Source: Candidatus Borrarchaeum weybense
GTDB lineage: Archaea; Asgardarchaeota; Sifarchaeia; Borrarchaeales; Borrarchaeaceae
NCBI GenBank assembly: GCA_019057385.1
Contig: JAHQJS010000005.1
Coordinates: forward strand, 256,799-320,798
Direction of reading: 5' to 3'
DNA length: 64,000 nucleotides
Under the pieces are notes generated by a model, which was not told the DNA's origin, made no database searches, and was given only the letters and a program-made list of their open reading frames with translations. Positions 5,529-25,296 of this stretch are shown here, piece after piece. Position numbers and translations under genes: made by a program. The number at the start of each line of letters is the position of its first letter. The stretch's first letter is position 1.

Positions 5529-5667
5529 AGCCCGGTGGTGTAGCGATGTGGATGATTTTTATCCCATTGCAAATTGGCCAAGCATAGTGGGCTTTGGACT
5601 CGCTGAGAATTATCTAACCTTATTACGATAATTCGCGGAAACCCCAGTTCGAATCTGGGCCGGGCTA
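5529..5667 (+). tRNA. tRNA-Gln(UUG) with two non-canonical introns (16/17: 5545-5573; 45/46: 5606-5640)
   Basis: Acceptor AGCCCGG/CCGGGCT, anticodon loop CT-TTG-GA (5594-5596), T arm CCCAG-TTCGAAT-CTGGG; both inserts fold as 4-bp helices flanked by 3-nt bulges. Confidence 0.9.
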
Positions 5668-5784
5668 TCACTTTTTCAAGCAATGTAAAACCATATGAAT
5701 AAATTAAAAAAAAGTTATCTAAATCACAATAGAAATCCGCATCTCAGAAAGGCTACACTTATTATATGAGTGACACGAAACGCT

Positions 5785-6054
5785 CTAAATATGGAAGGGC
5801 TTTCCTTTTTCAAGCGTTTCCCCTGGAATTTTGTCCTTAAATTTCTTCATAAATTCAAGATCGTCTTTTTCCTCGCGTAAATCGTCTGGAAGCATGTGAG
5901 GAATAGTTTCAATTATAGGGTACCATCTACTGCAATTGGAACAAATAAGAACTCCCTTTTCAATTTCATCATTTTCTTCGAATACATGCAAATCAAGTGG
6001 ATGATGTTTGCATATCGGACAGGCGAGGATCTCCATAAGTTTTCTTCTCATCAT
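5785..6054 (-). CDS. trm112: Trm112 family methyltransferase activator
   Basis: LMEILACPIC..G.LICSNC.RWYPI...IP.MLP. Confidence 0.9.
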   Translation of the reverse strand: MMRRKLMEILACPICKHHPLDLHVFEENDEIEKGVLICSNCSRWYPIIETIPHMLPDDLREEKDDLEFMKKFKDKIPGETLEKGKPFHI

Positions 6055-6155
6055 AGAACCTCCTAATACTTTCAAGAATAGTCTACTGAAATCCTTTAAA
6101 AATTATGCGTGCGTGTAATTATTAATTAGGAATAACAAATTTGTGTGGTAGCTCA

Positions 6156-7247
6156 ATGAATTTATCAGTTTGGGTCGACTATCTTACGCCAAAACAAGTA
6201 TTATTTTTCAGAAGCATTACTGAAAAACTCGAAAAAGATGGTTTCGAAATAATAAGAACAACGCGTGAGTATAGCGAAGTTATTCGAATGCTTGAATTAA
6301 CTGGCACTGAGGCAAGAATTATAGGACGACATGGAGGTCGTTCTCTAAAAGGGAAACTTATTGCAAGTGCGGAACGCATTATTGAATTGGCTAAATACAT
6401 TTCAACTAAAAAAATTGCATGTGCATTAGGTTTTGGCTCACCTGAATTGTCTCGTGTGGCTTTAGGTCTGGCAATCCCTCATTTTACGGTGAATGACTCA
6501 CCTCATTCTATTGCAGTAGCACGGCTTACAAGTCCACCTTTATCAGAACGATTGTTTACTCCAGAACAAATTCCAATAAGTGCATGGTTAAAAATAGGTG
6601 TACCACAGGATCAAATAACTCAATACAATGGACTTGATCCAATTGCATGGTTAAAAGGATTTACGCCCAATAATCATATTATTGAAGAATTAGGCCTCAA
6701 CCAAGATCTACCCATTATAGTCGCTAGAACCGAAGAAAAAAAGGCCTCGTATTTGCTTGATTTAGATCCCCGCCAAATCTCAATAATTGTCCCAATTATA
6801 AAGAAGATTTCTCAGGAATATCCTGGCTATCAGATTGTAGTAATTCCTCGTTATGACAAGCAATATTTAGAATTAAGAAAAACATTAGACGAAGAAATTA
6901 AAATTTTAGATAAAGCAATAGATGGTGCCAGTTTACTTGCATTTTCATCACTTTTTATTGGCGCTGGAGGTACAATGAATGCTGAAGCAGCACTTTTAGG
7001 TGTTCCAACGATATCTTGCTATCCAAAAGAGACTACTTATGTTGAACAGTATTTGATAAATGAGGGCGCTATTTACAGGGCAAAAAATGAGAATAAGGTT
7101 ATGGAAAAAACAAAAGAGATTTTGTCTAGGCCTGAAGAGTTTAAGGAGCAACATAAATTGGTTGCAGAGCGCCTTTCAAATACTATGGACGATCCTGCTG
7201 AGGTAATTGTGGAGTATCTTGAGAAATTTCTTACTAAAAAGTCTTAG
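6156..7247 (+). CDS. DUF354 glycosyltransferase-like protein
   Basis: VWVDYLTPKQ, IGRHGG, GAGGTMNAEAALLGVP. Confidence 0.85.
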   Translation: MNLSVWVDYLTPKQVLFFRSITEKLEKDGFEIIRTTREYSEVIRMLELTGTEARIIGRHGGRSLKGKLIASAERIIELAKYISTKKIACALGFGSPELSRVALGLAIPHFTVNDSPHSIAVARLTSPPLSERLFTPEQIPISAWLKIGVPQDQITQYNGLDPIAWLKGFTPNNHIIEELGLNQDLPIIVARTEEKKASYLLDLDPRQISIIVPIIKKISQEYPGYQIVVIPRYDKQYLELRKTLDEEIKILDKAIDGASLLAFSSLFIGAGGTMNAEAALLGVPTISCYPKETTYVEQYLINEGAIYRAKNENKVMEKTKEILSRPEEFKEQHKLVAERLSNTMDDPAEVIVEYLEKFLTKKS

Positions 7248-7251
7248 AGAA

Positions 7252-7530
7252 TTATCCTAATGATGTAATCTCACTTTTTTTCATTGCTGTTTTGAAATAA
7301 TTTTTTGTAATATGATTCCAGACAAAAAGCCATGTTATAAATAGCCCAATTCCAGTTGCTGCTTTAATAATTCCCGTAATGACACGACCCACATATCCTA
7401 TAATTGGAAGTTGAAGCGGAATGATATAAACTTCAAGAAAAAGAAGAATTAATATGAAACTGAACCATACTACAAAGAGAATACTACCTATTTCTAATGC
7501 GCTTCTATACTTCCATCTCATGCTTATCAA
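7252..7530 (-). CDS. Small two-TM membrane protein
   Basis: Two hydrophobic helices; co-oriented with the aglH-like gene. Confidence 0.6.
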   Translation of the reverse strand: MISMRWKYRSALEIGSILFVVWFSFILILLFLEVYIIPLQLPIIGYVGRVITGIIKAATGIGLFITWLFVWNHITKNYFKTAMKKSEITSLG

Positions 7531-7540
7531 TCTCCAAATG

Positions 7541-8527
7541 TCATACTGGTGTAATTACAACAGATATTACCGCTAATATTGCTGCAAATAAACTAAGAAT
7601 TGCCAAAATCTTCACTATATCAATTTCTTCAAGAGCCCCCCTTGCAAGTATTAGACGCGTTAGTGTTAGGGGCGCCTCTTTGTCAGGGTTTGCAGCAAGT
7701 TTCCCATCAGGCAAAATTGTAACAGGACGTTTATTCAATTGTGTTCTTCCTTTCAATCCACCAACGCTGGCCAAGATATGAAATGAATTCATAATATGTG
7801 GCATAAGAGCAATTATTGCTGCAATTTCTAACCTACCAATAACCGCAATGCCTCCAATTGCTGCTCCTACTGTGAAACTTCCTACATTTCCCGAAAATAC
7901 TTTTGCGGGATATTTATTGAATATCAAAAATGCAACTAATGCACCTAGTAACAATAGACAAAAAAGAATACCTGTTATGGAGTCTAGAATTATTGCGCAA
8001 ATTAAGAGAGAGGCAGATGCAATTATACATGTAATTGGCATTGAGCCGTTATATACATCCAACATATTTACAGCATTGGCGGGTACAGTGATTGCTAATA
8101 GTAATGCCCCCCAATAAATAATCGTTAATCGAGTTCTACCAATAATCGGAAGTAAAGGACGTGGCGTGACTACTTCAAATAATAATAGTGGAATAATCGC
8201 AAAAACTAAAATAACTGCCTTTTTTCCTGGTGAAAGACCTTTTAGATCATCATAAATTCCAACAAATCCTGCAATAAGGATTATACAAACAAAAGCTAAA
8301 ATTTCCTGAAAGTATTGACCTAAAATAAATAGAATAAGCAGTGAAGCCAAAATTAATCCCGCTAGGATTGCGAGTCCGCCCATTTCCGGGATTTCTGGTT
8401 TATTTGGCTTATGGATGTCGATACCGATAATTCCTTTTTTCTTTAGATACTTCAATAAAAATGGTATAATAGCAAAGGTCAGACCAAACGAAACAAAAAA
8501 GGATAAGGCAATAAATTGAGTCTGCAT
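7541..8527 (-). CDS. aglH: UDP-GlcNAc:dolichyl-phosphate GlcNAc-1-P transferase (AglH/Alg7-like)
   Basis: GIDIHK..PEMGG, GIYDDL, NAVNMLD.YNG, FNKYPAKVF.GNVGS; multi-TM. Confidence 0.85.
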   Translation of the reverse strand: MQTQFIALSFFVSFGLTFAIIPFLLKYLKKKGIIGIDIHKPNKPEIPEMGGLAILAGLILASLLILFILGQYFQEILAFVCIILIAGFVGIYDDLKGLSPGKKAVILVFAIIPLLLFEVVTPRPLLPIIGRTRLTIIYWGALLLAITVPANAVNMLDVYNGSMPITCIIASASLLICAIILDSITGILFCLLLLGALVAFLIFNKYPAKVFSGNVGSFTVGAAIGGIAVIGRLEIAAIIALMPHIMNSFHILASVGGLKGRTQLNKRPVTILPDGKLAANPDKEAPLTLTRLILARGALEEIDIVKILAILSLFAAILAVISVVITPV

Positions 8528-8620
8528 CTCTCTAGCAACCTTCCTTAAAAGTTGAACTGATCAAAAAAACATTCTACTATTTTTTAATTCTTTTCATTTA
8601 ACTTACAGAAAAAGAATGTT

Positions 8621-10153
8621 CTAATTAGATAGTTGGCTCATTTGGAATAGTTCAACAGTATAGGGTTGGTCAGTAGCTATAATTGAATTAAATTGGTATC
8701 TCTCAGTAAGCAACTGCAAAACTAAGTCATGGATGTTACTATCTACATACGGATCATCAATGAAATAAACTGGTTTATCAGTTATCCAATTTTCGATAAA
8801 AGGTAGTAATTCTCCAGTTATTTCATTTTCAGTTAAAGCACTATAACGAAGATAATATCTTTCATCATATTCTCGTGAAAAATACGGATGAAATAATTTA
8901 TCCCATGTCGCGTCTCCAATTATGAGCGAGTCAGGTTGTGTATTTGTATAAAACAGATCTCTATAGTAGACCAACCTACCCTTAAATGAATAATATTGTG
9001 ACACCATTACAATATTCATAAGCCCTAAAGTTATGAACAATACTAAGAAGAAATAGTAAAACACTTTTTTTGTTTTAATAAAACCAGAAAACCACATAAC
9101 GGCATTAAAACATAAATATGGCAAGATAACAAGCAAATACCTTGAAGATTCGATGAATAGATGCTCTATGTCGAATCTAAGATAAGAGCCACCATAGAAG
9201 ACAAGAAATGTCAAAATCATAAAAAAGCTAATGAAATGGACATCTTCGCCGAACTTTTTCCTAGTATAGAGAAATGCAGTGATAAGTCCAAATGGTGGAA
9301 ATAGATTAAGGATCAAAAAATAGCGAGGTAAGTTGATTAAAAGGCGTAGTGGATTGAAAAAGACCTCTCCAGTTAATTGATAGCCAGTTACAAAAAAATT
9401 TCCAAAGAAATATGAGTTATAAAGCGCAATTATCGATAGGAAGGGAATTAATGGAATATAATGCAGATAAATAGATAATTCACCTAATTTTCTCGTTCTG
9501 ATTTGATTTAGAAGAAACGGAAGCATGAAAAGAATATTAACAAGCTTCAATAAAACTGCAAATCCAAGCGATAGGGAAGAAATCATAAAATAAAGATACT
9601 CATTCTTTTTAGATGCCCTTAGGTAAAAGAAAAAGGAAAGAAGAAGAAATGTTGCAGAAGTAAGGTCACTAAAAAGCGTTCTAGAATAAAAAACCATTGG
9701 AGGGCATAATCCAAGAAAAAAAGCCCCTATTAGACTACATAATCTGTCTTTTGATATTTCCAACACACAAAAATATGTCAAAATAACCGTAAATATTGCA
9801 AAAACTCCATTCATGTAATATATGAAGGGATATCCCCCTATCAAATAAAAAATTGCTATTAGTAGCGATTGTCCTATAGGATATTTTGAAATAAACACGT
9901 TTGGTTTTGTTGTAGGCACAAAATTTCCACTTAAGAGAGGAGATTCCAGTTGGATTGTTATGGGATTTCCTTCGGCAAGTTGAATTGCAGTGAAAATATA
10001 GTAATACTCATCAGGAGAGGTATAGAAGAAAATCTTGCTAACAAAATAAAAAGGAGCACATATCAGAGTTAATATCAGCATGTCTTTTATTCGGAAATCA
10101 ATCTTTGAGAGAGACCTCAAGTTAAATCCCTGTATTCCTTGAATACGCAACAA
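8621..10153 (-). CDS. GT-C fold (ArnT/PMT-like) membrane glycosyltransferase
   Basis: PDE motif in first loop, KYPIG, many TM helices, RYLL.ILP. Confidence 0.75.
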   Translation of the reverse strand: MLRIQGIQGFNLRSLSKIDFRIKDMLILTLICAPFYFVSKIFFYTSPDEYYYIFTAIQLAEGNPITIQLESPLLSGNFVPTTKPNVFISKYPIGQSLLIAIFYLIGGYPFIYYMNGVFAIFTVILTYFCVLEISKDRLCSLIGAFFLGLCPPMVFYSRTLFSDLTSATFLLLSFFFYLRASKKNEYLYFMISSLSLGFAVLLKLVNILFMLPFLLNQIRTRKLGELSIYLHYIPLIPFLSIIALYNSYFFGNFFVTGYQLTGEVFFNPLRLLINLPRYFLILNLFPPFGLITAFLYTRKKFGEDVHFISFFMILTFLVFYGGSYLRFDIEHLFIESSRYLLVILPYLCFNAVMWFSGFIKTKKVFYYFFLVLFITLGLMNIVMVSQYYSFKGRLVYYRDLFYTNTQPDSLIIGDATWDKLFHPYFSREYDERYYLRYSALTENEITGELLPFIENWITDKPVYFIDDPYVDSNIHDLVLQLLTERYQFNSIIATDQPYTVELFQMSQLSN

Positions 10154-10258
10154 GCATATTAATTTTTATAAATCTATATAAAATAACATCGTTTGATGCG
10201 ATGAATCTGGTATATACTGTGGGGTGATGTGCCATATTTGCTCTACGGGTGATTTCAA

Positions 10259-11371
10259 ATGAATATTAAGATTCTCACGGCAAATCTTAGGCGTATTGGA
10301 GGTGAACAGAGAGTAGCAATCGAAGAAATCATTGGGCTGAAAAATAAAGGATACAATGTTAAAGGTTACAGTTTTTTAGGCACAAAAGATTTCTGGATTC
10401 TTAAAGGAATACCTATTATCTTTTATCCAAATCTAAAACTTCCTCTCCTCAAACAATCGTTTAATTGCTGGCTCTCATGGTATCTTCCTCCAAAGACTAA
10501 GGGCGATATATTAATATGCCACGGTAATGCTACATTCCCAATAGGTCATAAAATAAAAAATAAACTCTCAAAAATAAAATATATTCCTTATTTTCATACT
10601 TTATATGGTTATGCGCATCCTCTCACATTATTTCGACCATTTAGAAATTTTGCCTTTCATAGAATGGAAAGAAAAATGCTATACAAGGATCTTGTAAATG
10701 CAGACCACATAATTACAAACTCCACGTTTATGACAGATAGATTACTTAATATACACCCAAATTTAACTGCAGAAATTACTGTAATACACCCTGGAGTAAA
10801 AGAACCTAAGAAACCTGAACTACATATACGACGAAAAAAGTTGGGTTTTACTCTCACTAGGATTCACAGAGGTAAACAGCTTGAATTCCTGCTCGAAGTC
10901 ATTAAAGAAATACCAGATATCAAATGGATAATTGCAGGGGCAATAACTCCTCATATAAGAATTATACGGAAAAAAATCTTAGATTTAAAATTAAAAGAAC
11001 GTGTAAAGATACTTCCTTCAATCTCTGAAGAATTATTGGAATATCTTTACTATAGTGCATGTGTTTTCGTCCATGCAAACGTAGAAACTTTTGGGATGCC
11101 TGCATTAGAGGCCCTCGTCCACGGATGTCCAATTGTTCATCCCTATCCTTCTGGCATATGGGATGTCGCTCAAGATGGTATACAAGGATATCAGGTAGAA
11201 CAAAACAATAGAGAAGATTTTGTAGATAAAATAAATAAAATACTAGAGAATCCGCCTCTAAGAGCAAAAATGAGTGAAAAAGGAAAGGATCTAATTAATA
11301 AAGTATCTTGGAACGCGCATTTGGATGCTCTTGAAGATTTAATAAATTCATCAATTTCACCTGCTTCATAA
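10259..11371 (+). CDS. GT4 glycosyltransferase
   Basis: GGEQRV, NS.F, ETFGMPALEAL. Confidence 0.9.
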   Translation: MNIKILTANLRRIGGEQRVAIEEIIGLKNKGYNVKGYSFLGTKDFWILKGIPIIFYPNLKLPLLKQSFNCWLSWYLPPKTKGDILICHGNATFPIGHKIKNKLSKIKYIPYFHTLYGYAHPLTLFRPFRNFAFHRMERKMLYKDLVNADHIITNSTFMTDRLLNIHPNLTAEITVIHPGVKEPKKPELHIRRKKLGFTLTRIHRGKQLEFLLEVIKEIPDIKWIIAGAITPHIRIIRKKILDLKLKERVKILPSISEELLEYLYYSACVFVHANVETFGMPALEALVHGCPIVHPYPSGIWDVAQDGIQGYQVEQNNREDFVDKINKILENPPLRAKMSEKGKDLINKVSWNAHLDALEDLINSSISPAS

Positions 11372-11389
11372 ATCAACAGAGGTGCTTTT

Positions 11390-12499
11390 TTGCGAATCGC
11401 AATCTTTCATGCGAATCTAAATATGGGAGGAGGAGGCGAAAAATGGGTCATGAATGTGGGAAACCTGTTAAAAAAAAGAGGACATGATTTAAGATATTTT
11501 ACGAACGAATATGACCCGGATCTAGCAATCTTTAAAGAATTTGATCGAGAACAAATCGAAATTGTAAAGAATTCACGGGGATTTCAAGGAAAATTCCGAT
11601 CTTTTAGAGAACTTAAATTAATGATGAATGTAGCTAAACGAATCGTAAAATTTAATCCAGAGACAATTATTCTCTCGACAGATCAACATTTGGCACGAAC
11701 ACTCAAAAAATATTGTAAAAAAATAATCATTTCTTATTTTCATACTATGAGCCCCAAAACTCGTGAAAAGTTTTTAACAAGGTTGTATTTGGCTATCCCT
11801 CGTCTTTTAGGATATCAAGATTATTTGTCATCTGATAAATTGATTGCTAACTCATTATATACCGCAAATTTAGTGCGAACGTTTTATCCGAATCTTAACA
11901 TTGAAGTAATATATCCGAGTGTGAATTCTAAAGAAATCACTCCTAATTTCTCGTATAGCCATAATCTTCTTTGTGTAGGAAGAATAGCTCCTTTCAAAAA
12001 CCAAATATTTCTGCTCAAAATATTACCTTATCTCCTTGAAAAACACCCGAATGTACGTTTAGTAATCGCTGGTTATTTTGATCAACAGTATATGAATTAT
12101 CTTGAAGAAATGAACAAGATTATTAAAAATTTAAGACTTGAAGATAATGTGGAAATAAGATTGAATTGTCCTCAAACTGAAATAGACAGTTTAATGAAAG
12201 ACTGTTCGATATTTCTTTCACCATCAATAAATGAATTTTTTGGGATGGTAGTTCTAGAGGCAATGGCTTATGGAAAATGTGTTATTGCACATAATTCTGG
12301 AGGCGTAAGAGAGATAATTACAAATGAATCAGGATTTCTTTTATCAGGGAACTCAAAGGATTGGGCTTTGAAAATGAATATGCTTTTGGAAGATAAAAAT
12401 CGATTGCTTAACATGGGTCATAGTGCAAGGAAACGAGCGGAATGTTTTACATGGGAAAAAACAGTAAATGATTTGGAAAAAATAATGGGCTCACTATAA
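11390..12499 (+). CDS. GT4 glycosyltransferase
   Basis: GGGEK, GRIAPFKN, EFFGMVVLEAMAYG. Confidence 0.9.
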   Translation: MRIAIFHANLNMGGGGEKWVMNVGNLLKKRGHDLRYFTNEYDPDLAIFKEFDREQIEIVKNSRGFQGKFRSFRELKLMMNVAKRIVKFNPETIILSTDQHLARTLKKYCKKIIISYFHTMSPKTREKFLTRLYLAIPRLLGYQDYLSSDKLIANSLYTANLVRTFYPNLNIEVIYPSVNSKEITPNFSYSHNLLCVGRIAPFKNQIFLLKILPYLLEKHPNVRLVIAGYFDQQYMNYLEEMNKIIKNLRLEDNVEIRLNCPQTEIDSLMKDCSIFLSPSINEFFGMVVLEAMAYGKCVIAHNSGGVREIITNESGFLLSGNSKDWALKMNMLLEDKNRLLNMGHSARKRAECFTWEKTVNDLEKIMGSL

Positions 12500-12586
12500 C
12501 GTGAATAACTGTCTTTGTCTTTATCGATGGAGATTGTAAGATATGAATTGTAATATTAGACTACTTAAAACTCATAATAGCACAGG

Positions 12587-13891
12587 ATGAAACTTATGGT
12601 GTGGCGTATTTTCCGCCAATTCATTTTTGGCTCAACAAGTAATGTACTTAATCGGGTAATAGGACTTATTGGTGCGATTATTACCGCGCGACTTTTAGGT
12701 CCAGAGGCTTATGGGCTGCTAGGGATTGTTTTTGCACTAACTCTAACCCTTAATATGCTTGCAGATAGCGGAATTGAACAAGCAATAGTTCATTACGCGG
12801 CAGGCGAAGAAAACGACCTAATGATCGTTTGGTCGGGTTTTATAATTGATTTTTTTATTACCAGTTCTGCCTTTTTGGTTAATGTACTATTTGCAGGCTG
12901 GTTTGCAGTTCAGACACAAAATCCTATAAAGTCACTTACGATACTTGCGGCACTTTACCTGATTCCAAGTGCCTTCGATACATGGAAATCAAGATTGCAT
13001 GCTAAAAAACGAATTGAACTGCTTTCTACAATTTCAGTTGTTAGCACAATAATGCAGACATCCTTCTCCATCGCTTTGATTATTCTAGGTTTTGGTGTTC
13101 AGGGGGCAGTACTAGGCTTCGTAGTTGCAAGGGTAGGCCATACACTACTTTATATGAACTATGGCTTTGGTAAAGGTGAATTTGATCTTAAAATCGTCAA
13201 ACAATTACTCAAATATGGAATACCAAATGGTTTGAGAAATCTGTCTCTGTATACTGTAGGTCGCATAGACCGACTTATACTTGCGTTTTTTGTCACTGCA
13301 TCAGATATTGCGTTTTACGGAATTGCAAATATGATTGGTAGTATGATTCAATTACTTCCTGCAAGCTTTTCTCTAATTATGCTTCCCTACATCTCCGAAG
13401 CGTATAAAAACAACGATTCTCATAAAATTCATGGTAGTTATGCTGCAGGTTTAGTAATTTTTAGCATATGGGGCATTGTTTCGAGCATAGCCGTCTTGAT
13501 TATAGCTGAACCCTTAATTCTGACCGTCTTAGGGCCTGAGTTTCTCCCAGCTATTATTATTTTGAGAATCAGTATATTTGCAGATTTGATGTATTGCCTA
13601 TTTTATGTTATGACTACTACTTTAGATGGTATTCGCCAACCGAAAATAACTTTAATTATAACAGGGGCACAGGCATTAACTACAATCTCATTACTTACAC
13701 TTATCATTCCGTCTTTAGGGATTATTGGAGCAGCATATGTTGATGTTATTGTAAGCATTATTGGTGTCATTTTAGGTTATTTCTATGTCAGAAAACAAAC
13801 ATCTGTTAAGATAAGTCAAAATTTGGGGTATATTAAAGAATTGCTGACGGTTTTAAAGAAAGGGATAAAAATAAATTCTCATGTAGATTGA
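12587..13891 (+). CDS. Wzx-type oligosaccharide flippase
   Basis: ARLLGPEAYG, about 12 TM helices, LIIPSLGIIGAA. Confidence 0.9.
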   Translation: MKLMVWRIFRQFIFGSTSNVLNRVIGLIGAIITARLLGPEAYGLLGIVFALTLTLNMLADSGIEQAIVHYAAGEENDLMIVWSGFIIDFFITSSAFLVNVLFAGWFAVQTQNPIKSLTILAALYLIPSAFDTWKSRLHAKKRIELLSTISVVSTIMQTSFSIALIILGFGVQGAVLGFVVARVGHTLLYMNYGFGKGEFDLKIVKQLLKYGIPNGLRNLSLYTVGRIDRLILAFFVTASDIAFYGIANMIGSMIQLLPASFSLIMLPYISEAYKNNDSHKIHGSYAAGLVIFSIWGIVSSIAVLIIAEPLILTVLGPEFLPAIIILRISIFADLMYCLFYVMTTTLDGIRQPKITLIITGAQALTTISLLTLIIPSLGIIGAAYVDVIVSIIGVILGYFYVRKQTSVKISQNLGYIKELLTVLKKGIKINSHVD

Positions 13892-13902
13892 GGAACTAAA
13901 TA

Positions 13903-14874: not shown

Positions 14875-14896
14875 ATATTTAGAGGTTTATAAACGA

Positions 14897-15871: not shown

Positions 15872-15931
15872 CTCTATCAAAATCTAAGTACTACGGGTAA
15901 GTGTGAATATCTTTGATGCGGATTTGAGAAA

Positions 15932-16410
15932 TTAATATTTTTTTATTGTGAAAGATATTTCATGTGGTCTAACAAAAGGAAGAGCAAAATAACCGATTTT
16001 AATTGGTTCTAGACTCACTGTTACGCAATATTTTTTTACTTTAGGATTTAATAACTTACACGCCTTATTAAACCAGGTCTTATTAAAGTATGAAAATGGT
16101 AAGGCGCTTTAGCCGTCCCCGACAATTTATGAGGGCATTTTACCTCAATTTCATCTTTACTAACTCTAACTAACTCTTTTATAAACTTAAATGGAGTTTT
16201 AGTATGTTCTATCACATGATAGGAGATAACTTTATCAAAAGTGTCTGCTCTGAAAGGTAAATAGTTACCATCGGCAACAATATCCGCCTTGGTTTTTGTT
16301 ACATCTTTATTCCGTAAGTAGACACCAGCAGGCAAATGGCACGTTTTAATAAACAAATCTACATTAATGTCACCTTTCGGCTCGTCGCCACAGCCAACAT
16401 CAAGTATCAT
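15932..16410 (-). pseudogene. Class I SAM methyltransferase, apparently frameshifted near 16090
   Basis: LDVGCG, LPFR..TFD, HVIEH; a plausible continuation YFNKTWF...KKY* lies in another frame, ending at 15932. Confidence 0.6.
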
Positions 16411-16468
16411 ATAGATCAACAATTATTTGTTTTGTGTGAATATTAGTGAGCATGATATATACTCATTT

Positions 16469-17623
16469 TCAGAGTCTTAAGGTCATTAGTTCTAGAATCT
16501 GTTCCCTAAAATTTACTTCATCGTAAATCTGTGCTCTTTTTATAACTGAGTCGCTCTTTTTCCTAAAGAAATCCTCGTCACCAATAACCTTGTCGATATA
16601 TGTGGCTATTTCTGATATATGATTAAATAAAAACCCATATTTTCCTCTTTCCAATATTTCGATTGATCCTCCAGAATTATGATTGATAGGTATGCAACCG
16701 CTTGCCATTGCCTCTACAGTACTAATGCCAAAGTGTTCATTTTGCATTGGATGTACAAATACCTTAGATTGCCCTAGTATTTTTTTCACAGTTTTGAAGG
16801 GTGCATTAGGATAGAATCGAACTCTATTGTCGACTCCAAGTTCCTTACATAGCCTCTTTAGTCTTAGAAAGTAAGTATTCATGGCGGGAATCAATCCACC
16901 TATCAAATTTAATCGAACTTTCGTTTCGCATTCGCTTATTGCTTGTATTGCCAGTTCAAACCTTTTTTCTGGTGTAAACCTTCCTAAAGAAACTACTATA
17001 TCTTCTTTACTAGATCCTGGAGAATACTCAGAGACAGAAACTGGTGGATACACAACCTTGACATCTTTTCTATGCCAAACTTTTTCGACAAATCTTTTAG
17101 TAAACATGCTATTTGCACACACTATATCTGAGAAATCACCGTCAGCAGGTAATACAACTCTTCTTTGAAACAGAAGGTAAAGTTTCCAGTATATGTTATA
17201 TGGAAAACGAAAATATTTCTCAGGAAGAAGTTCTTTTATAGATGTTTCTGCGACGGTGGGAAAATGAACGTATCTTAAAACTTTAGCATTGTATTTTTTA
17301 ACATCGCTCTGTAATGGTTTGATAAATTCCATATCTAGAAAGACACTTTCCGGATGAAATTTCTTTATAGCCTTTCTTATAGGTAAATATGTAATAAGTC
17401 GGTGAAAGATTCCGAAGAGGTTTATATATTTTTTAAGAAGATAAAATTGTTGCGGCTCTTCAATTAAACTTATGCCAAAATTCTTTTCGAAAGTTGCTTT
17501 CGCATTGAATTGAGATGTTGTAGCAATCGCTACATTATGCGCTTTTTGTAAGGCTTCATCGACAACAATTGCACATAACCTTTCTCCTCCACCTTTCGAT
17601 TCGAAAAGATGATGTGCCACCAA
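16469..17623 (-). CDS. GT4 glycosyltransferase (Alg11-like mannosyltransferase)
   Basis: GGGER, YVHFP, GRFTPEK, EHFGISTVEAMASG. Confidence 0.85.
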   Translation of the reverse strand: MVAHHLFESKGGGERLCAIVVDEALQKAHNVAIATTSQFNAKATFEKNFGISLIEEPQQFYLLKKYINLFGIFHRLITYLPIRKAIKKFHPESVFLDMEFIKPLQSDVKKYNAKVLRYVHFPTVAETSIKELLPEKYFRFPYNIYWKLYLLFQRRVVLPADGDFSDIVCANSMFTKRFVEKVWHRKDVKVVYPPVSVSEYSPGSSKEDIVVSLGRFTPEKRFELAIQAISECETKVRLNLIGGLIPAMNTYFLRLKRLCKELGVDNRVRFYPNAPFKTVKKILGQSKVFVHPMQNEHFGISTVEAMASGCIPINHNSGGSIEILERGKYGFLFNHISEIATYIDKVIGDEDFFRKKSDSVIKRAQIYDEVNFREQILELMTLRL

Positions 17624-17730
17624 TATTCTCAGCTAATAATGCCTCCTTAATTAGGAATATCCCATTAATGCTTATTCAGAATTCCTACTTAAGATAATTA
17701 AAGTATTTCTAAGAGAATTTGAGGTTAAAA

Positions 17731-17745
17731 GAGAAACTTTAAATA
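17731..17745 (+). promoter_or_regulatory. BRE/TATA promoter of the rps13 operon
   Basis: GAGAAAC-TTTAAATA about 100 nt upstream of rps13. Confidence 0.55.
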
Positions 17746-17844
17746 GTCAACTACATTAAGTATTCTCCCTTACTTTCTGGGATAAATATCCCATCAGAAA
17801 TGTTTTATGAACATTTATGGCTAATCAAATAAAAAAGGAACTAG

Positions 17845-18312
17845 GTGTCGTTATTGTCATCGTCTTTCAGACATATTATTCGTATAATAGGTACAGATAT
17901 CGATGGAAATAAACGGTTAGACATGGGCTTAACTGATATTCCAGGTGTTGATATTCGGTTATCCCATGCAATATTACATGTAGCTGATATGGACCAAACT
18001 TCAAGAGTTGGTTTTCTTAGCGATCGTGATGTGAAAAAACTTGAAGATATCATTACAGATCCCTCAAATAATGGTATTCCAAAATGGTTGTTAAATCGTC
18101 AAAAGGATCCACACACTGGCGAGGATATACATTTATTAGGCGCTCGACTAAGACTGATGACAAAAACTGATATTGATTTACTGATGAAACTCAAAACATA
18201 TAAAGGTATACGCCATTCGCAAGGACTAAAAGTGAGAGGACAAAGAACAAGGACTACTGGACGGAAAGGCAGAGTTGTTGGAGTGCGCTTGAAGAAAAGA
18301 AGCGGCAGATAA
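17845..18312 (+). CDS. rps13: 30S ribosomal protein S13 (uS13)
   Basis: IP.WLLNRQKD, GIRH..GLKVRGQRTRTTGR. Confidence 0.97.
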   Translation: MSLLSSSFRHIIRIIGTDIDGNKRLDMGLTDIPGVDIRLSHAILHVADMDQTSRVGFLSDRDVKKLEDIITDPSNNGIPKWLLNRQKDPHTGEDIHLLGARLRLMTKTDIDLLMKLKTYKGIRHSQGLKVRGQRTRTTGRKGRVVGVRLKKRSGR

Positions 18313-18324
18313 AGGTGATGCGTT

Positions 18325-18864
18325 ATGGGTGATCCAAAAAAACCTAAGAAAAAGTATAAGAAACCCTTTCATCCGTGGGGAAAAAATCGAATGGCTATAG
18401 AGCTCGAATTAATCGGTAAGTATGGTCTTCGTAATAAGAAGGAATACTTACGGCATGAGGCGTATCTGAGAAAGATTAGAGAACAAGCTAGGCAAATTTT
18501 AGCTATTCTAGAAACTGATAAAAGAGAGAAAGTAGAAAAGGAAATATTATCAAGATTAGAACGCCTTGGATTGATTCAAACAGAGGCAGTTATTGATGAT
18601 GTCCTTAGTTTAACAACTGAAGATCTTTTAAAACGTCGACTTCAAACTATAGTTTTTAGACAAGGCTTTGCAAAATCTATTCATCATGCGAGACAACTTC
18701 TTCTTCATGGTCACATAGCACTTCGAGGTCAAAAAATAACTTCTCCAAGTCGTCTATTGCTTAAGGAAGAAGCAAAAGAGTTAACGTATGCATCTTCGAG
18801 TCCATATATGGAAGATAGTCACCCAGAACGTCCATCTACACCAATTCCTGAATCAACTGAATAA
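18325..18864 (+). CDS. rps4: 30S ribosomal protein S4 (uS4)
   Basis: [27 protein letters not shown]. Confidence 0.97.
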
Positions 18865-18890
18865 AAATAGTTTTTCTTGAGGTTAATTAT

Positions 18891-19289
18891 ATGAGTCACA
18901 GAAAAGAACAGAAATGGGGCGTTGCCCATATTTATTCTTCTTATAATGATACAATTGTTCATATAACGGACCTTACTGGTGCTGAAACTATTGCGCGATA
19001 TAGCGGAGGTATGATCGTTAAGGCAGATCGAGAAGAAAGCAGTCCTTACGCTGCCATGCAAGCCGCTTTTAGGGCTGCAAATGAAGCAAGAGATAAGGGT
19101 ATTTCAGCTCTTCATATAACTGTAAGAGCACCGGGTGGTCATGGCGCAAAAACACCAGGCCCAGGCGCACAAGCAGCAATCCGTGCTCTAGCCCGTGCAG
19201 GTATGCGGATTGGTAGAATTGAAGAAGTCACACCAGTTCCTCATGATGGAACTAGACGCCCAGGCGGTCGTCGTGGAAGACGCGTTTAA
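18891..19289 (+). CDS. rps11: 30S ribosomal protein S11 (uS11)
   Basis: [29 protein letters not shown]. Confidence 0.97.
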
Positions 19290-19421
19290 GAATTTTTTGT
19301 TTTCTAATTACTATTATACTGTAAACACTCTCGAAAATGGAAATACAATTTCCATTCTTGTGTTCTACAAAATGACAATAGTTAATGCAACGATTTTTTA
19401 ATTCTTTAAAGAGAATTAGAA

Positions 19422-19548
19422 TGGCGCCGGGGGAGGGATTTGAACCCTCGAGCTCCAATGGAGCACAGGCTCTCAGATCTGGTTTCCAGGCATGAGCTGC
19501 AATGAATGACGCTTGCATCTGCTCCCTACCAGGCTAAGATACCCCGGC
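19422..19548 (-). tRNA. tRNA-Ser (most likely GGA) with two introns (29/30: 19492-19518; 37/38: 19472-19483), CCA encoded
   Basis: Acceptor GCCGGGG/CCCCGGC-G-CCA, long variable arm GCTCC/GGAGC, TTCAAAT loop; intron 1 has a GAGC/GCTC helix with AGA and ATG bulges; intron 2 has a relaxed helix. Confidence 0.85.
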
Positions 19549-19656
19549 ATATTCAGCATTGGATACCCAAAATCGATTGGTTTCTAGAAGGCACCTTTGT
19601 TTAAATATTTATAGGCTAGGTGCTAAAGCCCCCTGTACGAATTAAAAATTATATAA

Positions 19657-20256
19657 CTATATTAATGACTTATATACATGATATCCTGCCTTTTTTCCAA
19701 TTTCTAAGACCGTATTAAACACGTTATTCAATTTTTCATATACTCTATTGTGTCCCCTTCTTATGACTAATTGAAGAGAGCCTTGTGATGTAAGATGAAG
19801 AGGAGCCTCTTCAATAATTTGGAAGACAGTTTTCATGCCGCTTGAAACTGGAGGATTTGTCACAATAATATCGAATGTTTCCTTATCTCCTTGAATAGGC
19901 TCATAAAGGTCGCCCCATCTTGCCTCTGCATTTTTAATGTAATTTTTTTTAAGATTACTCTTCGTAAGATTGATGGCTCGTCTATTAATGTCTGTCAGAA
20001 CAACTTTACTATTAGGAGATATTATTGATGCTGCTACGATACCAATTACTCCTATTCCACAACCAAGATCCAAAACCCTGTCCGAGTTGGTCAAATCCAT
20101 TTTCTCGATAAGCAATTGCGTGCCTTTATCGATTTTGGATTGTGAAAAAACGTCTGGAGCAGAAACGAACTCAAACAATTTACCTCGTAGATACACAGAA
20201 ATTGTTTTCGTTTTTAACGAGGATGTGGGCATTTTAGACGAATATGGCTTTGGCAT
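19657..20256 (-). CDS. RsmC/MJ0882-like SAM-dependent methyltransferase
   Basis: VFS..KID.GT.LL, LDLGCG.G, TNPP. Confidence 0.9.
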   Translation of the reverse strand: MPKPYSSKMPTSSLKTKTISVYLRGKLFEFVSAPDVFSQSKIDKGTQLLIEKMDLTNSDRVLDLGCGIGVIGIVAASIISPNSKVVLTDINRRAINLTKSNLKKNYIKNAEARWGDLYEPIQGDKETFDIIVTNPPVSSGMKTVFQIIEEAPLHLTSQGSLQLVIRRGHNRVYEKLNNVFNTVLEIGKKAGYHVYKSLI

Positions 20257-20280
20257 TTTTCTCAGGGACCTTATCTTTTA

Positions 20281-21317
20281 CTATTGTTTAAAGGATTTCC
20301 ACTCTGGATACGTTGAGCGTGGCATTATGACTTTCTTTGTATTAGCAACTATGCCATGATCTATTTCAAGAATCTCTTTACTTAACATAGTAGCCTCAGC
20401 AATACCAATTGCTTCGCCTTTCTGAGTAAATATGGCTACAGTACCACCTGGTTTGATATTATCGCTTAACTTTAATACACCAGGCGCCGTTAATTTTGCC
20501 CCATGGCATATTGCATCGACTGCAGAGTCTCGAATCACCAGCTTTGGAAGATGAACTAAGCCTTCTTCCACAGGTTGTATTACCTTACGCAGATACTGTT
20601 CCTTTCCATCCTCTTTCCAATAGTGATATGCATCGTTTACTTCAAGAAGTGTAACAAGAGTGTCATCCTCCTTGAATGGACCTGCACGCGTTCTCCTTAG
20701 TTCTAACATATGAGCCCCCGTGCCCAACACTTCGCCAATATCATGTACCAGCTTCCTCATATAGAATCCCGCTTCGCAACCGACTCGAATGAGCACGTCT
20801 TTTCCTAAAATTTCTAATACATTTGTATAATATACTCTACGGATTCTTAAGCGTCTTTTTACAGAAGATCTTAGTGGAGGACGCTGATAAAGTGGGCCTG
20901 TAAACTCTTGACATATTGTCTCTATTTTTTCGTGATCTACTTCTTTGTGAAGACGCATTATGCAGATGTATTCTTTCCCAGCAGGAAGCCAACTTTGTAC
21001 AACCTTTGTTGCACGTTCTAAAGCAACTGGAAGAATTCCTGTTACGCCGGGATTACTCTATTCTGAAGATTAACTCACCTTCAGAACTCTAGAGTCCCTC
21101 CATGTCCTGCTTTCTTTAATTCCAGAATTCTTTTGATCCATGCTACAACTTCATGACTTGTTGGTCCAGCAGGTTTATCTAAATTGATTATTCCAAAGGC
21201 TAAATGCTTTTCAATAGGACGTTCAGCAGGCTTATAACCCCATTCAGGATTTGTCGCCTCCTGTGCTTTAGTGATTAATTCTCCCCGCACGTCACTAGGT
21301 AGGCGGCCTCTTTCCAT
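20281..21317 (-). CDS. cbf5: H/ACA pseudouridine synthase Cbf5, two exons (21317-21089 and 21053-20281; 333 aa after splicing)
   Basis: [17 protein letters not shown]|DPGVTG restored by removing 35 nt, PUA domain. Confidence 0.95.
21054..21088 (-). other. 35-nt BHB intron in cbf5 at the catalytic Asp codon
   Basis: mRNA GGGA-CUCU-AG|A-GUUCUGAAG...CUUCAGAAU-AGAG-UA|A-UCCC forms a strict BHB; splicing gives CTA GAT CCC (L-D-P). Confidence 0.95.
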
Positions 21318-21388
21318 TTTTTCACCTTCTCATTTTTGGAAATCCCAAAAAGTTATTTATATTACAATAAAATAAGTAAAATTAAAAA

Positions 21389-21673
21389 TTAGGGCAGAAC
21401 GATTTTAACCCGTTCTTTTAATGCATCAGTCATCCCCGCAGCCTCAATTGCTTTAAGAACTGCTTCATCATCTGATCCTCGTCCGATTTCAATTTTTTCC
21501 GTTGTTGGTTCGATGTGTCGTATTGATGCACGTCGTCTTTTTACACCGTTTAATTCTTTAGGACCAGTTATTTCCACAGTTTTTGGGTCAACAATATCTA
21601 GGATCACACATTTTCTTCCGACTTCTCTCCCAGCCGTTTTTACGCAAATTCGTCCAATTTCTATCGCAGGCAT
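21389..21673 (-). CDS. rpl14e: 50S ribosomal protein L14e
   Basis: IEIGRICVKTAGRE.G, GVKRRR. Confidence 0.95.
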   Translation of the reverse strand: MPAIEIGRICVKTAGREVGRKCVILDIVDPKTVEITGPKELNGVKRRRASIRHIEPTTEKIEIGRGSDDEAVLKAIEAAGMTDALKERVKIVLP

Positions 21674-21674
21674 T

Positions 21675-22241
21675 TCATTTTTCACCTCCTATGAATTCTT
21701 GTATTGCTGTTTTTAAGATATTTGTTATTGAATCAATTGACCATTTGTCAGTATTAAGGATGATATCAAAGATGCTCAGGTCTTGAACGTCAATATTATA
21801 AATTTTTTTGTACCTCTTTCTTTCGCTTGTTTCACGCTTTGTCGTTTCGCCTAAAGCGTATTCATAAGGATCTCCGTCTCTTTGAGCAATTCTTTCGACA
21901 CGTACTTCTAATGGTGCGGTCACAAAGATGTTAAGATCAACAAAATCTTTACACATCCAGGCAGTCAAATGTCCATCTAACACTACATTTCCTTTTTTTG
22001 CTGCATCTATACTTCTTTCATCAATTTCTTTATCAATATGAATATTCTTCTCTGCAAATGTGCTAAAAGTGCTTAAATCCATTTCTCTTTGTTGAGCCAT
22101 TTGCCTAAAGATTTTTCCCGCAGAGATATGTTCTAATTCAAAGGCTTCCGCAATGTGTTTAGCAAAAGTGGATTTTCCAGCACCAGCTGTTCCAGAAATC
22201 GCTATTGTAAGACCCTTATTTTGGGGCAAACTATTCACCAA
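21675..22241 (-). CDS. cmk: Cytidylate kinase (archaeal)
   Basis: ISGTAGAGKST, SAG.IFR, conserved operon position. Confidence 0.92.
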   Translation of the reverse strand: MVNSLPQNKGLTIAISGTAGAGKSTFAKHIAEAFELEHISAGKIFRQMAQQREMDLSTFSTFAEKNIHIDKEIDERSIDAAKKGNVVLDGHLTAWMCKDFVDLNIFVTAPLEVRVERIAQRDGDPYEYALGETTKRETSERKRYKKIYNIDVQDLSIFDIILNTDKWSIDSITNILKTAIQEFIGGEK

Positions 22242-22275
22242 TATAAGAAAAAGAAATCAGTTTAAAAAAATGTTG

Positions 22276-22542
22276 CTAAATTCTTGCCGCCTGTTTTGTG
22301 AGTTCTTGCAGGCATTGAGGACAAAGATGCCCGCCATAAGGTCTTTCTGGACGGCGCTGCGTCTTTGGCAACTTTCTTATTTCTGCGGCGGAAAGGCGAG
22401 GAACACCTGATAACAATTTTCCGCAGTTTGCACACTTACTTTTTCTCACTTTTTTCTTCTTATAATGTGTAGTTGTTCGACCACCTGGCAATTTCATTTT
22501 TCGTTTTTTAATTAACCGAGTACGATAACGTGGTGCTGGCAT
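22276..22542 (-). CDS. rpl34e: 50S ribosomal protein L34e
   Basis: PGGR, C..CG..L.G, RPERPYGG.LC..C. Confidence 0.95.
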   Translation of the reverse strand: MPAPRYRTRLIKKRKMKLPGGRTTTHYKKKKVRKSKCANCGKLLSGVPRLSAAEIRKLPKTQRRPERPYGGHLCPQCLQELTKQAARI

Positions 22543-22600
22543 CTTGTTTTTCACCTACTTTTAACTGTTTTTAGTTACTTTTAACTCATCTGTATTTACT

Positions 22601-23194
22601 TCAGCTCGTCTGGAAAGCAGAAAGACCTCCCATACCGATATTTATACCAAAGATCCTCTGGACTATTGCACCAAATGCAAAGCTCGTCATGGCGTACCAC
22701 CAAACGAAGAGTAGCGCGTATAGGTTCTCTGCTCCAACATTCGCTCCAAAGAACGCAATTGGGAAGCTGAACGGAAGTATTACCACGTATCTAGCCCCTT
22801 CACCCGCAATAAGTGGTAAGTAACCATTGAAGAATCCATTTATTATCCAGAAAAGCGCAAAGAACCCTGGCATGTAAATGAACATTGGTTTAAACCTTTC
22901 CATCATTACTCTGCTTTGAATCTTCTGTATATAATTTTCTTTACGTTTCACCTTTCGATAAAGTCGCTTGTTAGCGGTTTTTTGAGCCTCAGCCTTTGCC
23001 TTATTCCAAGTTGCGATTTCCTTCTGGTAGCGATTAAGCTTGTCCATGTCCATTACGAAGCGACTAACAAGGCTAATCACTACGGAGAGTAGAATGGACA
23101 ACGATAGAATAAATAGAGTGGACCCTGGACGCTGGCCTATACCAACGTTATATAACCACTGATAAAATGGAATTAAGATGTTCCACCATGCCAT
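22601..23194 (-). CDS. EMC3/TMCO1 (DUF106) Oxa1-superfamily insertase
   Basis: TM, coiled coil, KPM, TM, WWY; conserved position after adk. Confidence 0.85.
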   Translation of the reverse strand: MAWWNILIPFYQWLYNVGIGQRPGSTLFILSLSILLSVVISLVSRFVMDMDKLNRYQKEIATWNKAKAEAQKTANKRLYRKVKRKENYIQKIQSRVMMERFKPMFIYMPGFFALFWIINGFFNGYLPLIAGEGARYVVILPFSFPIAFFGANVGAENLYALLFVWWYAMTSFAFGAIVQRIFGINIGMGGLSAFQTS

Positions 23195-23197
23195 TTT

Positions 23198-23794
23198 TTA
23201 ATTCACACCCTTTAATACGACTGCTAATTCTTCTGCAGTCTCATCAACCATACCTTCCTTATTTTTTACGATTTTGACAGTGGCTCCTGTCAAAACTGAA
23301 ATTGCAGTCGCAGCTGCCCGACATAGGTTTTGATGAGTGTTGATTTCTATCGTAGAATCTTGATCACGAGTTCTAGTTTCATCCTTTGAACGTCTACTAA
23401 AGATAAATTCTGGTTCTGCTTCAACAAGTACAATTACATCTGGTTTAAGTGTAGTGATAACCCATTCGGGTAATCCTGCTAGATAACCTTCTGGAGTTGC
23501 GATCAACATATGAGTATCGACTATTAATAGCTTTCCCTGTGCTGCTTTTTTTGCTATGATCTCTGCTGCATTCTTTTGAATTTCCCGTTGTTTTTCAGGT
23601 GGGAGTAGACGCATTTGATCTCTGTTTTCCACAAATCCTGAATTTACTGCCGCGTCAAACATCACAGATCCGTAATTTACGATCTCTACGGTATACTCTT
23701 GTCTAGCAATATCCGCCGCTTTATTCAAGACTGTTGTTTTCCCAACTCCGGGAATTCCAGTAACGATGACAATGCGTTTACTAGCCACACTCAT
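23198..23794 (-). CDS. adkA: Adenylate kinase (archaeal)
   Basis: TGIPGVGKTT, NYG..M, DTH, GYLAGLP. Confidence 0.95.
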   Translation of the reverse strand: MSVASKRIVIVTGIPGVGKTTVLNKAADIARQEYTVEIVNYGSVMFDAAVNSGFVENRDQMRLLPPEKQREIQKNAAEIIAKKAAQGKLLIVDTHMLIATPEGYLAGLPEWVITTLKPDVIVLVEAEPEFIFSRRSKDETRTRDQDSTIEINTHQNLCRAAATAISVLTGATVKIVKNKEGMVDETAEELAVVLKGVN

Positions 23795-23813
23795 GAATTA
23801 TCGCTCCGTTAAA

Positions 23814-25262
23814 TCATCCAAATCCTAAGAAATCTCTGAGGGATGGATGTATATCTGCTAATCGCTCTTTAGCTATGATCTCATAATATTGTGATATTAT
23901 CATAGTAGCTAACAGAATCCCCATGCCTGTACCAAGTGCTCCAAGATAATCTGCAAAAGCGGCTATAAGCGCAATCGCCACACCACCCCATATAGAGGCG
24001 GGACCAATGTAACGCTTCAGTAATTTTTCAAGTATCTTTGGACTACTTCTAAATCCAGGAACCATCATTCCTGCATCTAAAAGTTGCCTTGCCACATCTT
24101 TTGGAGCCATTCCTCCAACTTCAATCCATGTTACTGAGAAAATGGTGCACGCAACAATTAATACTAATAGATAAACTACAGCCCTCAAGGGATCCGCTGT
24201 CACCACTTCAATGCCTCGTGGAGGCGTCAAATAGTAGACAAGACCTCCTACAGGTTTCAATCCTGCATCTGTCGACTCGAAAGTACCAATTAAATTGTAC
24301 CAGAAGTTAGAGTTGCTCTTATTGTAACGTGACCATAATAACTGCCCAATAAGGTAAACATTAGCGAAGAAAGCCGCTGCAAGAATCACAGGAATATTCG
24401 AAGCGTAAAAGAATTTGATAGGATATCTTCCTTTAAAACCACGATATTTGGCATACGTAAGTGGTACTTCTATGCGAATAGCCTGCATGTAAATAACGAT
24501 AACAAACACAACTGCTGTGGCAATGAATCCTGTCATGTCTGGAAGGCTGCCTGGACGATCAAATGCGGTCATGGCATCTCCTTCAGCAATATATTGTCCA
24601 AGAGCTATGAGCGCACCATGATATTTACCGTCATCTGAAATTACAAGTCCTAAAGAGTTCCATGCTACCTGTTCGGCTACACCAGCAGCAATAAAGAGAG
24701 AAATTCCTGAGCCAAGACCCCATCCTTTCTGCAATAATTCGTCCATTAGCATGAGGACTATACCGGCAGCTATAAGCTGAATGAATATAAGAATTGTGAT
24801 ATCGATGGATAAGGTTCCAAACGCACCTCCGATAAGATATGCTAACGCCTGAAACACTGTCATTATTACACTTAACACTTTTTGAGCAGCAGTAAATAGA
24901 GAACGGTCTTCTGGATCCGAGAAGTCTACGTCAATGATCTGACTGCCAGATAATAACTGCATAACCAGCCCTGCAGTTACTATTGGGCCGATCCCCAACT
25001 CCATGAGTGTTCCTCTAGAACTCGCAAGAATGGTTCGCATCCAGAATTCCGCGAGCTATCTAAGTGATAGTTCTCTAAACGGGTCTGGACCGATATTCTT
25101 TGGAAGTCCATATAGAGGAATTTGTGCCATAACTAAATATAAGAGAAGACAAAGTACCGTATAAACTGCCTTTTCTTTGAAAGACACATCTCGATCTGGT
25201 TTCCCGACCTCTGGTATAACTCTCGATAATGGAGAGAAAATGCGTAAAAATGTACCTGTCAA
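23814..25262 (-). CDS. secY: Protein translocase SecY/Sec61alpha, two exons (25262-25077 and 25046-23814; 472 aa after splicing)
   Basis: PEV.KP, QIPLYG, DPF|FWMRTILASSRGTLMELGIGPIVT, KGWGLGSGISLFI, YPIKFFYASNIP, GTGMGILL. Confidence 0.93.
25047..25076 (-). other. 30-nt BHB/BHL-type intron in secY containing an in-frame TAG
   Basis: mRNA CCAGA-C-CCGU-UU|A-GAG-AA-CUAUC-acuua-GAUAG-CUC-GCGG-AA|U-UCUGG; splicing gives GAC CCG TTT TTC TGG ATG (DPFFWM). Confidence 0.85.
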
Positions 25263-25296
25263 CGATTTTCACCTAATATTTAACGATTGTTTTGCC

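Follow-up and report, generated by a model that had tools for sequence, protein, structure and literature searches.

A secY intron that resembles a tRNA-Gln intron in Candidatus Borrarchaeum weybense: a lead toward intron transposition between tRNA and protein genes

The secY gene of the Asgard archaeon Candidatus Borrarchaeum weybense is interrupted by a 30-nucleotide (nt) bulge-helix-bulge (BHB) intron whose resemblance to the second intron of a tRNA-Gln(UUG) gene 19 kb away exceeds that of unrelated BHB introns in this genome. We think it rather likely, from comparison of the two sequences, that both introns share ancestry via one old transposition, and the evidence fits a single old copying event rather than an active element. 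With a single short pair to go on, we offer this as a lead and do not regard it as demonstrated. Both genes lie within the window, i.e., the whole analyzed stretch of 64,000 nt (GenBank assembly GCA_019057385.1, contig JAHQJS010000005.1, positions 256,799 to 320,798 of the forward strand), to which all coordinates given without a contig refer. The window is part of contig C5 of the metagenome-assembled genome G000 (4.18 Mb, 37% GC), which is estimated to be complete with a contamination of 7%.

Comparisons were made with four congeners (G001, G002, G003, and G004), with G005 as a genome of the sister family, and, for secY, with a wider sample of 41 Asgard genomes that includes the more distant G028. 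The DNA of secY exon 2 divides the genus into clade A, composed of G000, G004, and G002 (91% to 95% identity), and clade B, composed of G001 and G003 (83%); across the two clades the identity is 79%. The two clade-B genomes are 69% to 76% complete.

The secY insert is a BHB intron

The secY gene lies on the minus strand (23814-25262), and its reading frame runs through a 30-nt segment that bears a TAG codon. Its parts are as follows, with the evidence for exons and intron in brackets:

25077-25262, minus strand: secY exon 1, from the N-terminus to ...GPDPF, start codon uncertain (reading frame)
25079-25090, minus strand: exon-1 side of the BHB, with outer strand GUCCAGA (25090-25084), bulged C (25083), and central strand CCGU (25082-25079)
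25047-25076, minus strand: secY BHB intron, 30 nt, in frame, containing TAG (fold, scan rank, and precise presence or absence in congeners)
25039-25046, minus strand: exon-2 side of the BHB, with the third bulge nucleotide U (25046) and outer strand UCUGGAU (25045-25039)
23814-25046, minus strand: secY exon 2, from FWMRTILASSRGTLMELGIGP... to the stop codon (reading frame)

Excision of the 30 nt joins ...GPDPF to FWMRTILASSRGTLMELGIGP..., and the resulting junction DPF|FWMR equals the one in G004, G003, and G005, whose secY has no intron. From its 5' end, the intron consists of A, GAG, an AA bulge, CTATC, the loop ACTTA, GATAG, CTC, GCGG, and AA, so that an inner helix of 3 + 5 base pairs (bp) with an AA bulge sits on a BHB core made of the central 4-bp helix CCGU/GCGG and the 3-nt bulges UUA and AAU on opposite strands. 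The outer exon-exon helix has 7 bp and a single bulged C beside the central helix, which is a relaxed form of the motif. This BHB is the unconstrained minimum free energy (MFE) fold of 67 nt (-22.4 kcal/mol, 54% of the ensemble, z = -3.6), with predicted cuts between 25077 and 25076 at the 5' site and between 25047 and 25046 at the 3' site. When the genome was scanned for BHB-shaped segments whose excision joins two open frames, secY ranked third among 15,951 loose candidates, behind the intron of cbf5 and a repeated non-coding element. This strict scan is not a census, as it missed an insert in rfcS whose bulge is not exactly 3 nt and, at first pass, cases with short exons. The enzymes for splicing are encoded in G000, with two EndA genes (PF01974) and RtcB on C5.

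The insert is carried by G000, G002, and G001, and exactly these 30 nt are missing in G004 and G003, which read DPFFWMR, as does G005 of the sister family. None of the SecY junctions read in the 41-genome sample (G003, G004, G005, and G028) has an insert, and none of the other secY orthologues listed there has an interrupted frame near the N-terminus, barring the three intron-bearing genomes. Clades A and B agree in all 25 nucleotides of the intron's stems and tail despite 21% DNA divergence of secY exon 2, and all variation is confined to the 5-nt loop (ACTTA, ATTCA, and GCCTA, plus GCTTA in independent sediment assemblies). The amino acid differs with three of these four loops (L, F, or P), and the fourth, GCTTA (A to G at 25065), is synonymous. 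Judged from these alleles, the pattern of conservation is one of RNA-structure constraint and not of protein constraint. Moreover, all intron-bearing alleles read GAC at the codon that provides the bulged C and intron-less alleles read GAT, a synonymous difference that looks like selection for the BHB because a U at this position could pair with the first A of the bulge and shrink the 3' bulge. Taken on fold and distribution, the insert is a genuine archaeal BHB intron whose splicing is predicted. The simplest account of its history would be a gain before the split of clades A and B, followed either by two precise losses or by replacement with intron-less alleles.

The tRNA-Gln(UUG) gene and its second intron

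ARAGORN and Rfam miss or mis-call interrupted tRNAs of this genome, including tRNA-Gln(UUG), and we instead built our own finder of T-arms and acceptor stems, an enumeration of BHBs, and a cloverleaf scorer. With these, the following features were located:

5529-5666, plus strand: tRNA-Gln(UUG) gene with two introns (cloverleaf after intron removal, score 16; anticodon TTG; variable region TGAC)
5545-5573, plus strand: tRNA-Gln intron 1, in the D-loop, 29 nt, unrelated to the secY intron (3' 14-nt identity to it is 5)
5606-5640, plus strand: tRNA-Gln intron 2, at position 45/46, 35 nt (BHB layout and cloverleaf)

The cloverleaf is perfect once both introns are removed. Intron 2 splits the 4-nt variable region as TG|AC, which defines its position as 45/46, and has the layout exon UCGC UG | A, an 8-bp hairpin (GAATTATC/GATAATTC) with a 12-nt loop, GCGG AA | A. 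It is present in all clade-A genomes, i.e., in G000, in G004 with the loop TAACTGTGTTAC, and in G002, which retains just the outer 5 bp and the tail. The intron is absent from tRNA-Gln(UUG) of the sister-family genome G005. From clade-B genomes G001 and G003, the CUG isoacceptor of tRNA-Gln was recovered, and it has no 45/46 intron.

We note that tRNA-Gln(CUG) of G000 (C4:207550-207742, minus strand) has an additional intron in the T-loop that its clade-B orthologues lack. By this distribution, the T-loop intron is another recent, lineage-specific gain within the genus.

Resemblance of the two introns

The 3' 14-mer of the secY intron matches that of tRNA-Gln intron 2 at 12 of 14 positions, and at 13 of 14 if the tRNA-Gln orthologue of G004 is taken. 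Further upstream, the segment AGAA(T/C)TATC agrees at 8 of 9 positions given a 2-nt offset in secY. Both introns start with A and end in the tail C-GCGG-AA, and in both the GCGG forms the central helix, with the exon partner UCGC in the tRNA and CCGU in secY. If the hairpins are aligned by their 3' arms, 6 of the 8 base pairs are common to both and the other two differ by A-U to G-C double transitions, i.e., are compensatory; the 5' arm in secY has two additional bulged As. Whole-length identity is approximately 62% (23 matches over 37 columns, with loops of 12 and 5 nt) and approximately 87% over non-loop positions, where intron families elsewhere have been drawn at thresholds of 70% to 80% or more. 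An earlier sequence-only reading of this DNA had proposed the kinship of the two introns, and its coordinates for both sequences (5606-5640 and 25047-25076) are exact. Its counts of 12/14 and 8/9 hold, the GCGG strand opposite UCGC and CCGU was confirmed, and the stems do differ in a compensatory way, by two double-transition pairs in the 3'-arm alignment. We did not retain its argument from the loop word CTTA found in both introns, which is no evidence because loops are conserved in neither intron lineage and vary freely across species. Likewise discounted was a likeness of the 5' exon flanks (GACUCGCUG versus GACCCGUUU, 6/9), four positions of which are the central helix itself; the C of GAC in this flank is better explained by the need for a 3-nt 3' bulge, because a U could pair with the bulge A.

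How unusual this resemblance is was assessed against several backgrounds. Among 13 introns verified in G000 (11 tRNA introns plus those of cbf5 and secY), the pair of tRNA-Gln intron 2 and secY is the outlier of all 78 pairs, with 12/14 matches versus 7/14 for the next-best pair and a Needleman-Wunsch score of 11.5 versus 1.5, though the 11 tRNA introns are all that could be curated with confidence and make this null a small one. Across 167,525 BHB-shaped segments of the whole genome (defined by a helix of 4 bp, a pair of 3-nt bulges, and 5 bp or more of inner helix), the tRNA-Gln intron alone matches the secY 14-nt tail at 12 or more positions, with one segment at 11/14 and 22 at 10/14. A position-specific null derived from the 13 real introns, which includes the preference of the lineage for A at the first position, closure by a G-C pair, and AA in the bulge, gives per-pair probabilities of 3.3e-5 for at least 12/14 and 1.9e-6 for at least 13/14. 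The hairpin core without the tail was compared with hairpin-preserving shuffles of the tRNA intron, and 1.5% of these reach the observed score (p = 0.015). The central 4-mer GCGG occurs in no other of the 15 introns that were examined for positional preferences. In the controls that the sequence-only reading had called for, the similarity exceeds that of unrelated BHB introns and of shuffled hairpins, and both introns have counterparts in congeners (the secY intron in G001 and G002, the tRNA-Gln intron in G004 and G002).

Search for further family members

Searches of G000, its genus, 400 Asgard genomes, a collection of genomes from 185,579 species, and the metagenome contigs of JGI returned no third copy of the secY/tRNA-Gln intron; in the JGI contigs, the archaeal matches are secY itself only. 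In the 400 Asgard genomes, the joint pattern TATC-loop-GATARYTCGCGGA hits secY in three genomes and tRNA-Gln in two, all of this genus. Four further Asgard matches lie inside intact open reading frames (ORFs) and were set aside as chance, and 13 matches in bacterial genomes and 10 in metagenome contigs are unrelated hairpins. Searches of the intron sequences with blastn-short returned only chance words of 11 to 14 nt, a method that is blind to an interrupted match. One candidate third member at C4:781426-781465 (minus strand, exon TCGT), with 11/14 matches to secY and 12/14 to tRNA-Gln, was discarded because it forms the regular 3' end of an ORF (...SRKDLTVEFLER*) that would be lost on splicing, and because its MFE fold has no BHB. 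By their distribution in these collections, both introns are innovations of one genus.

Other mRNA introns and structured elements of the genome

Coding sequences of G000 were searched for matches and BHB motifs as well, and other mRNA introns were indeed located:

21054-21088, minus strand: cbf5 intron, 35 nt, textbook hBHBh', phase 1 in the catalytic Asp codon (GGTL|DPGVTG)
C3:113732-113761, minus strand: rfcS insert in the Walker A motif GPPGT|GKTT, 30 nt, in frame, two internal stop codons
C7, about 307,700, plus strand: intron of nifU (Nfu-type), 32 nt, BHB, central helix UUAG/CUAA

None of them has similarity to the secY/tRNA-Gln pair or to the tRNA introns examined. Exon 1 of cbf5 encodes a DKCLD domain and exon 2 encodes TruB_N (from profile position 17), TruB_C_2, and PUA. 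The rfcS insert resembles the secY intron in being exactly 30 nt long and in frame, and it has a BHB-like fold, yet restoration of the frame seems to need 4 nt in one bulge. The nifU frame is broken after CAGCPFS, and excision of the 32 nt restores …SQMTVKNYIE….

A GC-rich non-coding element of approximately 420 nt is present in four copies (C5:231.0k, C7:316.5k, C3:132.7k, and C4:440.9k) whose mean column identity is 79% over a 576-column alignment that includes flanks and is higher in the core of approximately 420 nt. Every copy contains a BHB-shaped hairpin of 33 to 37 nt with a variable loop, the adjoining genes are unrelated, and no Rfam match was obtained at E <= 0.01. The element may be a structured RNA with its own intron or circularization motif. 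Contig C1 of G000 (179 kb, 39% GC) carries compact, intron-free tRNA clusters of bacterial style and a second RtcB, which suggests that it is contamination in the bin.

Origin of the resemblance

Several observations weigh against a common origin of the two introns. The informative alignment spans just approximately 23 non-loop positions, among which stem halves are not independent, and the family has two members. The head (A, G), the closing G-C pair with its C, and the AA of tail and bulge each occur in approximately 40% to 55% of the 15 introns examined in this genome, and therefore part of the identity is lineage consensus. Once corrected for the number of comparisons, the chance of such a match is approximately 0.005 for secY against some 150 tRNA and rRNA introns and approximately 0.03 if about five mRNA introns are allowed for; over all intron pairs of the genome it stands at roughly 1% to 3%, and freedom of alignment could lift it several-fold, up to about 10%. 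In Asgard archaea, copying of introns between tRNA genes is near the level of shuffled controls (1.5% versus 0.6%; bioRxiv 10.64898/2026.10.13.758758). No reverse transcriptase (RVT_1) was detected in G000, whose genome is estimated to be complete. As for RNA evidence, the one run with any match, a metatranscriptome with a few words in common, is limited to 25260-25400, outside the secY intron. Finally, tRNA-Gln(UUG), on which the relative ages of the introns and the direction of copying would hinge, was not found in the incomplete clade-B genomes G001 and G003.

An alternative is that two ordinary BHB introns were gained separately in an intron-rich lineage and came to look alike by chance and shared constraints, namely a bulge rich in A, closure by a G-C pair, a hairpin rich in A and T, and a central helix whose GC-richness is imposed by two exons that happen to read YCGY. 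This is possible, though in our judgment on the unlikely side. It would be in line with the frequent gain of Asgard tRNA introns and with inter-gene copying not being their general route (bioRxiv 10.64898/2026.10.13.758758), with the restriction to two loci and no third member, with the unconserved CTTA match in the loops, and with the 11/14 look-alike that turned out to be plain coding sequence, i.e., near-matches do occur by chance. It has to accommodate, however, the per-pair probability of 3.3e-5 obtained even with the positional preferences of the lineage in the null (approximately 0.005 for secY versus all introns), the outlier position among all pairs of real introns, a GCGG shared with none of the other introns, and stem differences that are compensatory transitions as expected of diverged homologous hairpins. 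The sequence-only reading had proposed that the mechanism described for tRNA genes also seeds introns into protein genes, as a mobile micro-intron system. An active and general system of this kind, in which tRNA introns repeatedly seed protein genes and the secY pair is one visible case among many, could draw on the several mRNA BHB introns (secY, cbf5, rfcS, and nifU) and heavily interrupted tRNAs of the genome and on the polymorphic presence of introns among close relatives, but the family has two loci in all collections searched, the introns of cbf5, rfcS, and nifU are unlike the pair and the tRNA introns examined, and no RVT_1 gene was found in G000; we consider it very improbable. Even less credence is due to the view that there is no intron at all and that the insert is translated in frame, with TAG read as pyrrolysine, into a 10-residue insertion in a SecY loop. 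PylS (C7:142596-143312) does adjoin a tRNA-Pyl(CUA) called by ARAGORN (C7:143743-143811), which makes it probable that some UAG codons are read as pyrrolysine in this Asgard lineage, and the insert is a multiple of three that keeps the frame. Against a translated insert stand the 25 stem and tail nucleotides that lack any synonymous change and are invariant at every codon position next to exons diverged by 21%, the residue changes caused by three of four loop variants, a textbook BHB whose cut sites restore the universal DPFFWMR, and the absence of an insert at the junctions read in other Asgard SecY (G003, G004, G005, and G028).

Common ancestry via one old transposition is therefore the reading that we favor, without the tRNA-to-mRNA direction that had originally been attached to it. 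Copying from tRNA to mRNA, from mRNA to tRNA, or from a common third source is equally possible, and ages do not decide between them because the secY intron is older than the deepest divergence within the genus and the tRNA intron is documented in clade A only. In a single event that dates to the ancestor of this genus of Borrarchaeota or earlier, one intron would have been copied from the other, or both from one progenitor. The new secY site would have been usable because the exon CCGU pairs with the GCGG of the intron, as UCGC does in the tRNA; in general terms, an exon YCGY located two nucleotides upstream of the insertion would rebuild the 4-bp central helix. In secY, EndA presumably cuts the pre-mRNA two nucleotides into each bulge and RtcB presumably joins the exons, in the same way as in cbf5 and the interrupted tRNAs of G000. 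The secY copy would afterwards have been frozen, with invariant stems and tail, by selection for splicing in an essential gene while the tRNA copy drifted, and two lineages would later have lost the secY intron precisely or had it removed by recombination with intron-less alleles. The route into DNA may have been insertion at the RNA level followed by reverse transcription, or a template switch between the two loci at the DNA level. A bolder variant, which we regard as quite improbable, holds that BHB introns of Borrarchaeota move as RNA between tRNA and protein genes. RtcB would ligate the intron, in excised or circular form, into a transcript that EndA had cut at a site complementary to the 3' GCGG of the intron, and the result would subsequently become fixed in the genome. 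This would explain the arrival of the mRNA introns in secY, rfcS, and nifU and would make secY and tRNA-Gln the first identifiable pair of donor and recipient.

Relation to known systems and significance

To the best of our knowledge, the sole proposed route by which such introns arrive at new sites is transposition among tRNA genes, resting on the intron families of Thermoproteales. We know of BHB introns in protein genes published for cbf5 only, within the searchable literature, and their origin is unexplained.

The cbf5 pre-mRNA intron was described in Crenarchaeota (Watanabe 2002; Yokobori 2009, PMC2738675), and the cbf5 intron of G000 splits the catalytic Asp codon at the site described there (PMC2738675). 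Like the crenarchaeal intron, the secY intron is a short BHB intron in an essential protein gene, has to be removed for the protein to be made, and shows patchy gain and loss among relatives. It differs in its host gene and lineage (Asgard, Borrarchaeota), in being in frame with an internal TAG, in the 1-nt bulge of its outer helix, and in resembling an identifiable tRNA intron, a likeness never reported for cbf5. Transposition of tRNA introns in Thermoproteales (Sugahara 2008 and Fujishima 2010, as cited in bioRxiv 10.64898/2026.10.13.758758) likewise concerns, in the account given by the citing paper, similar BHB introns at non-homologous sites of one genome with a BHB-compatible new site. 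Those introns form multi-member families among tRNA genes, with 28% of introns in families of at least 80% identity according to the same account, whereas here a single pair of approximately 62% whole-length identity has one member in an mRNA. For Borrarchaeaceae, the 2026 census of Asgard tRNA introns reports approximately 2.1 intervening sequences per tRNA gene with gains at BHB-competent sites (bioRxiv 10.64898/2026.10.13.758758). It found no arrival route and left the arrival of endonuclease-spliced introns at new sites as an open question, with mRNA introns outside its scope; the present pair would be a candidate for donor and recipient.

The polymorphism of introns among congeners provides a natural experiment on gain and loss. 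If the common ancestry of the secY and tRNA-Gln introns is true, it would offer a concrete pair from which rules for target sites could be derived, here a complementarity of 4 nt to the 3' end of the intron. It would also mean that transposition of BHB introns has crossed from the tRNA class to the mRNA class and links both, in the prokaryotes that are most closely related to eukaryotes.

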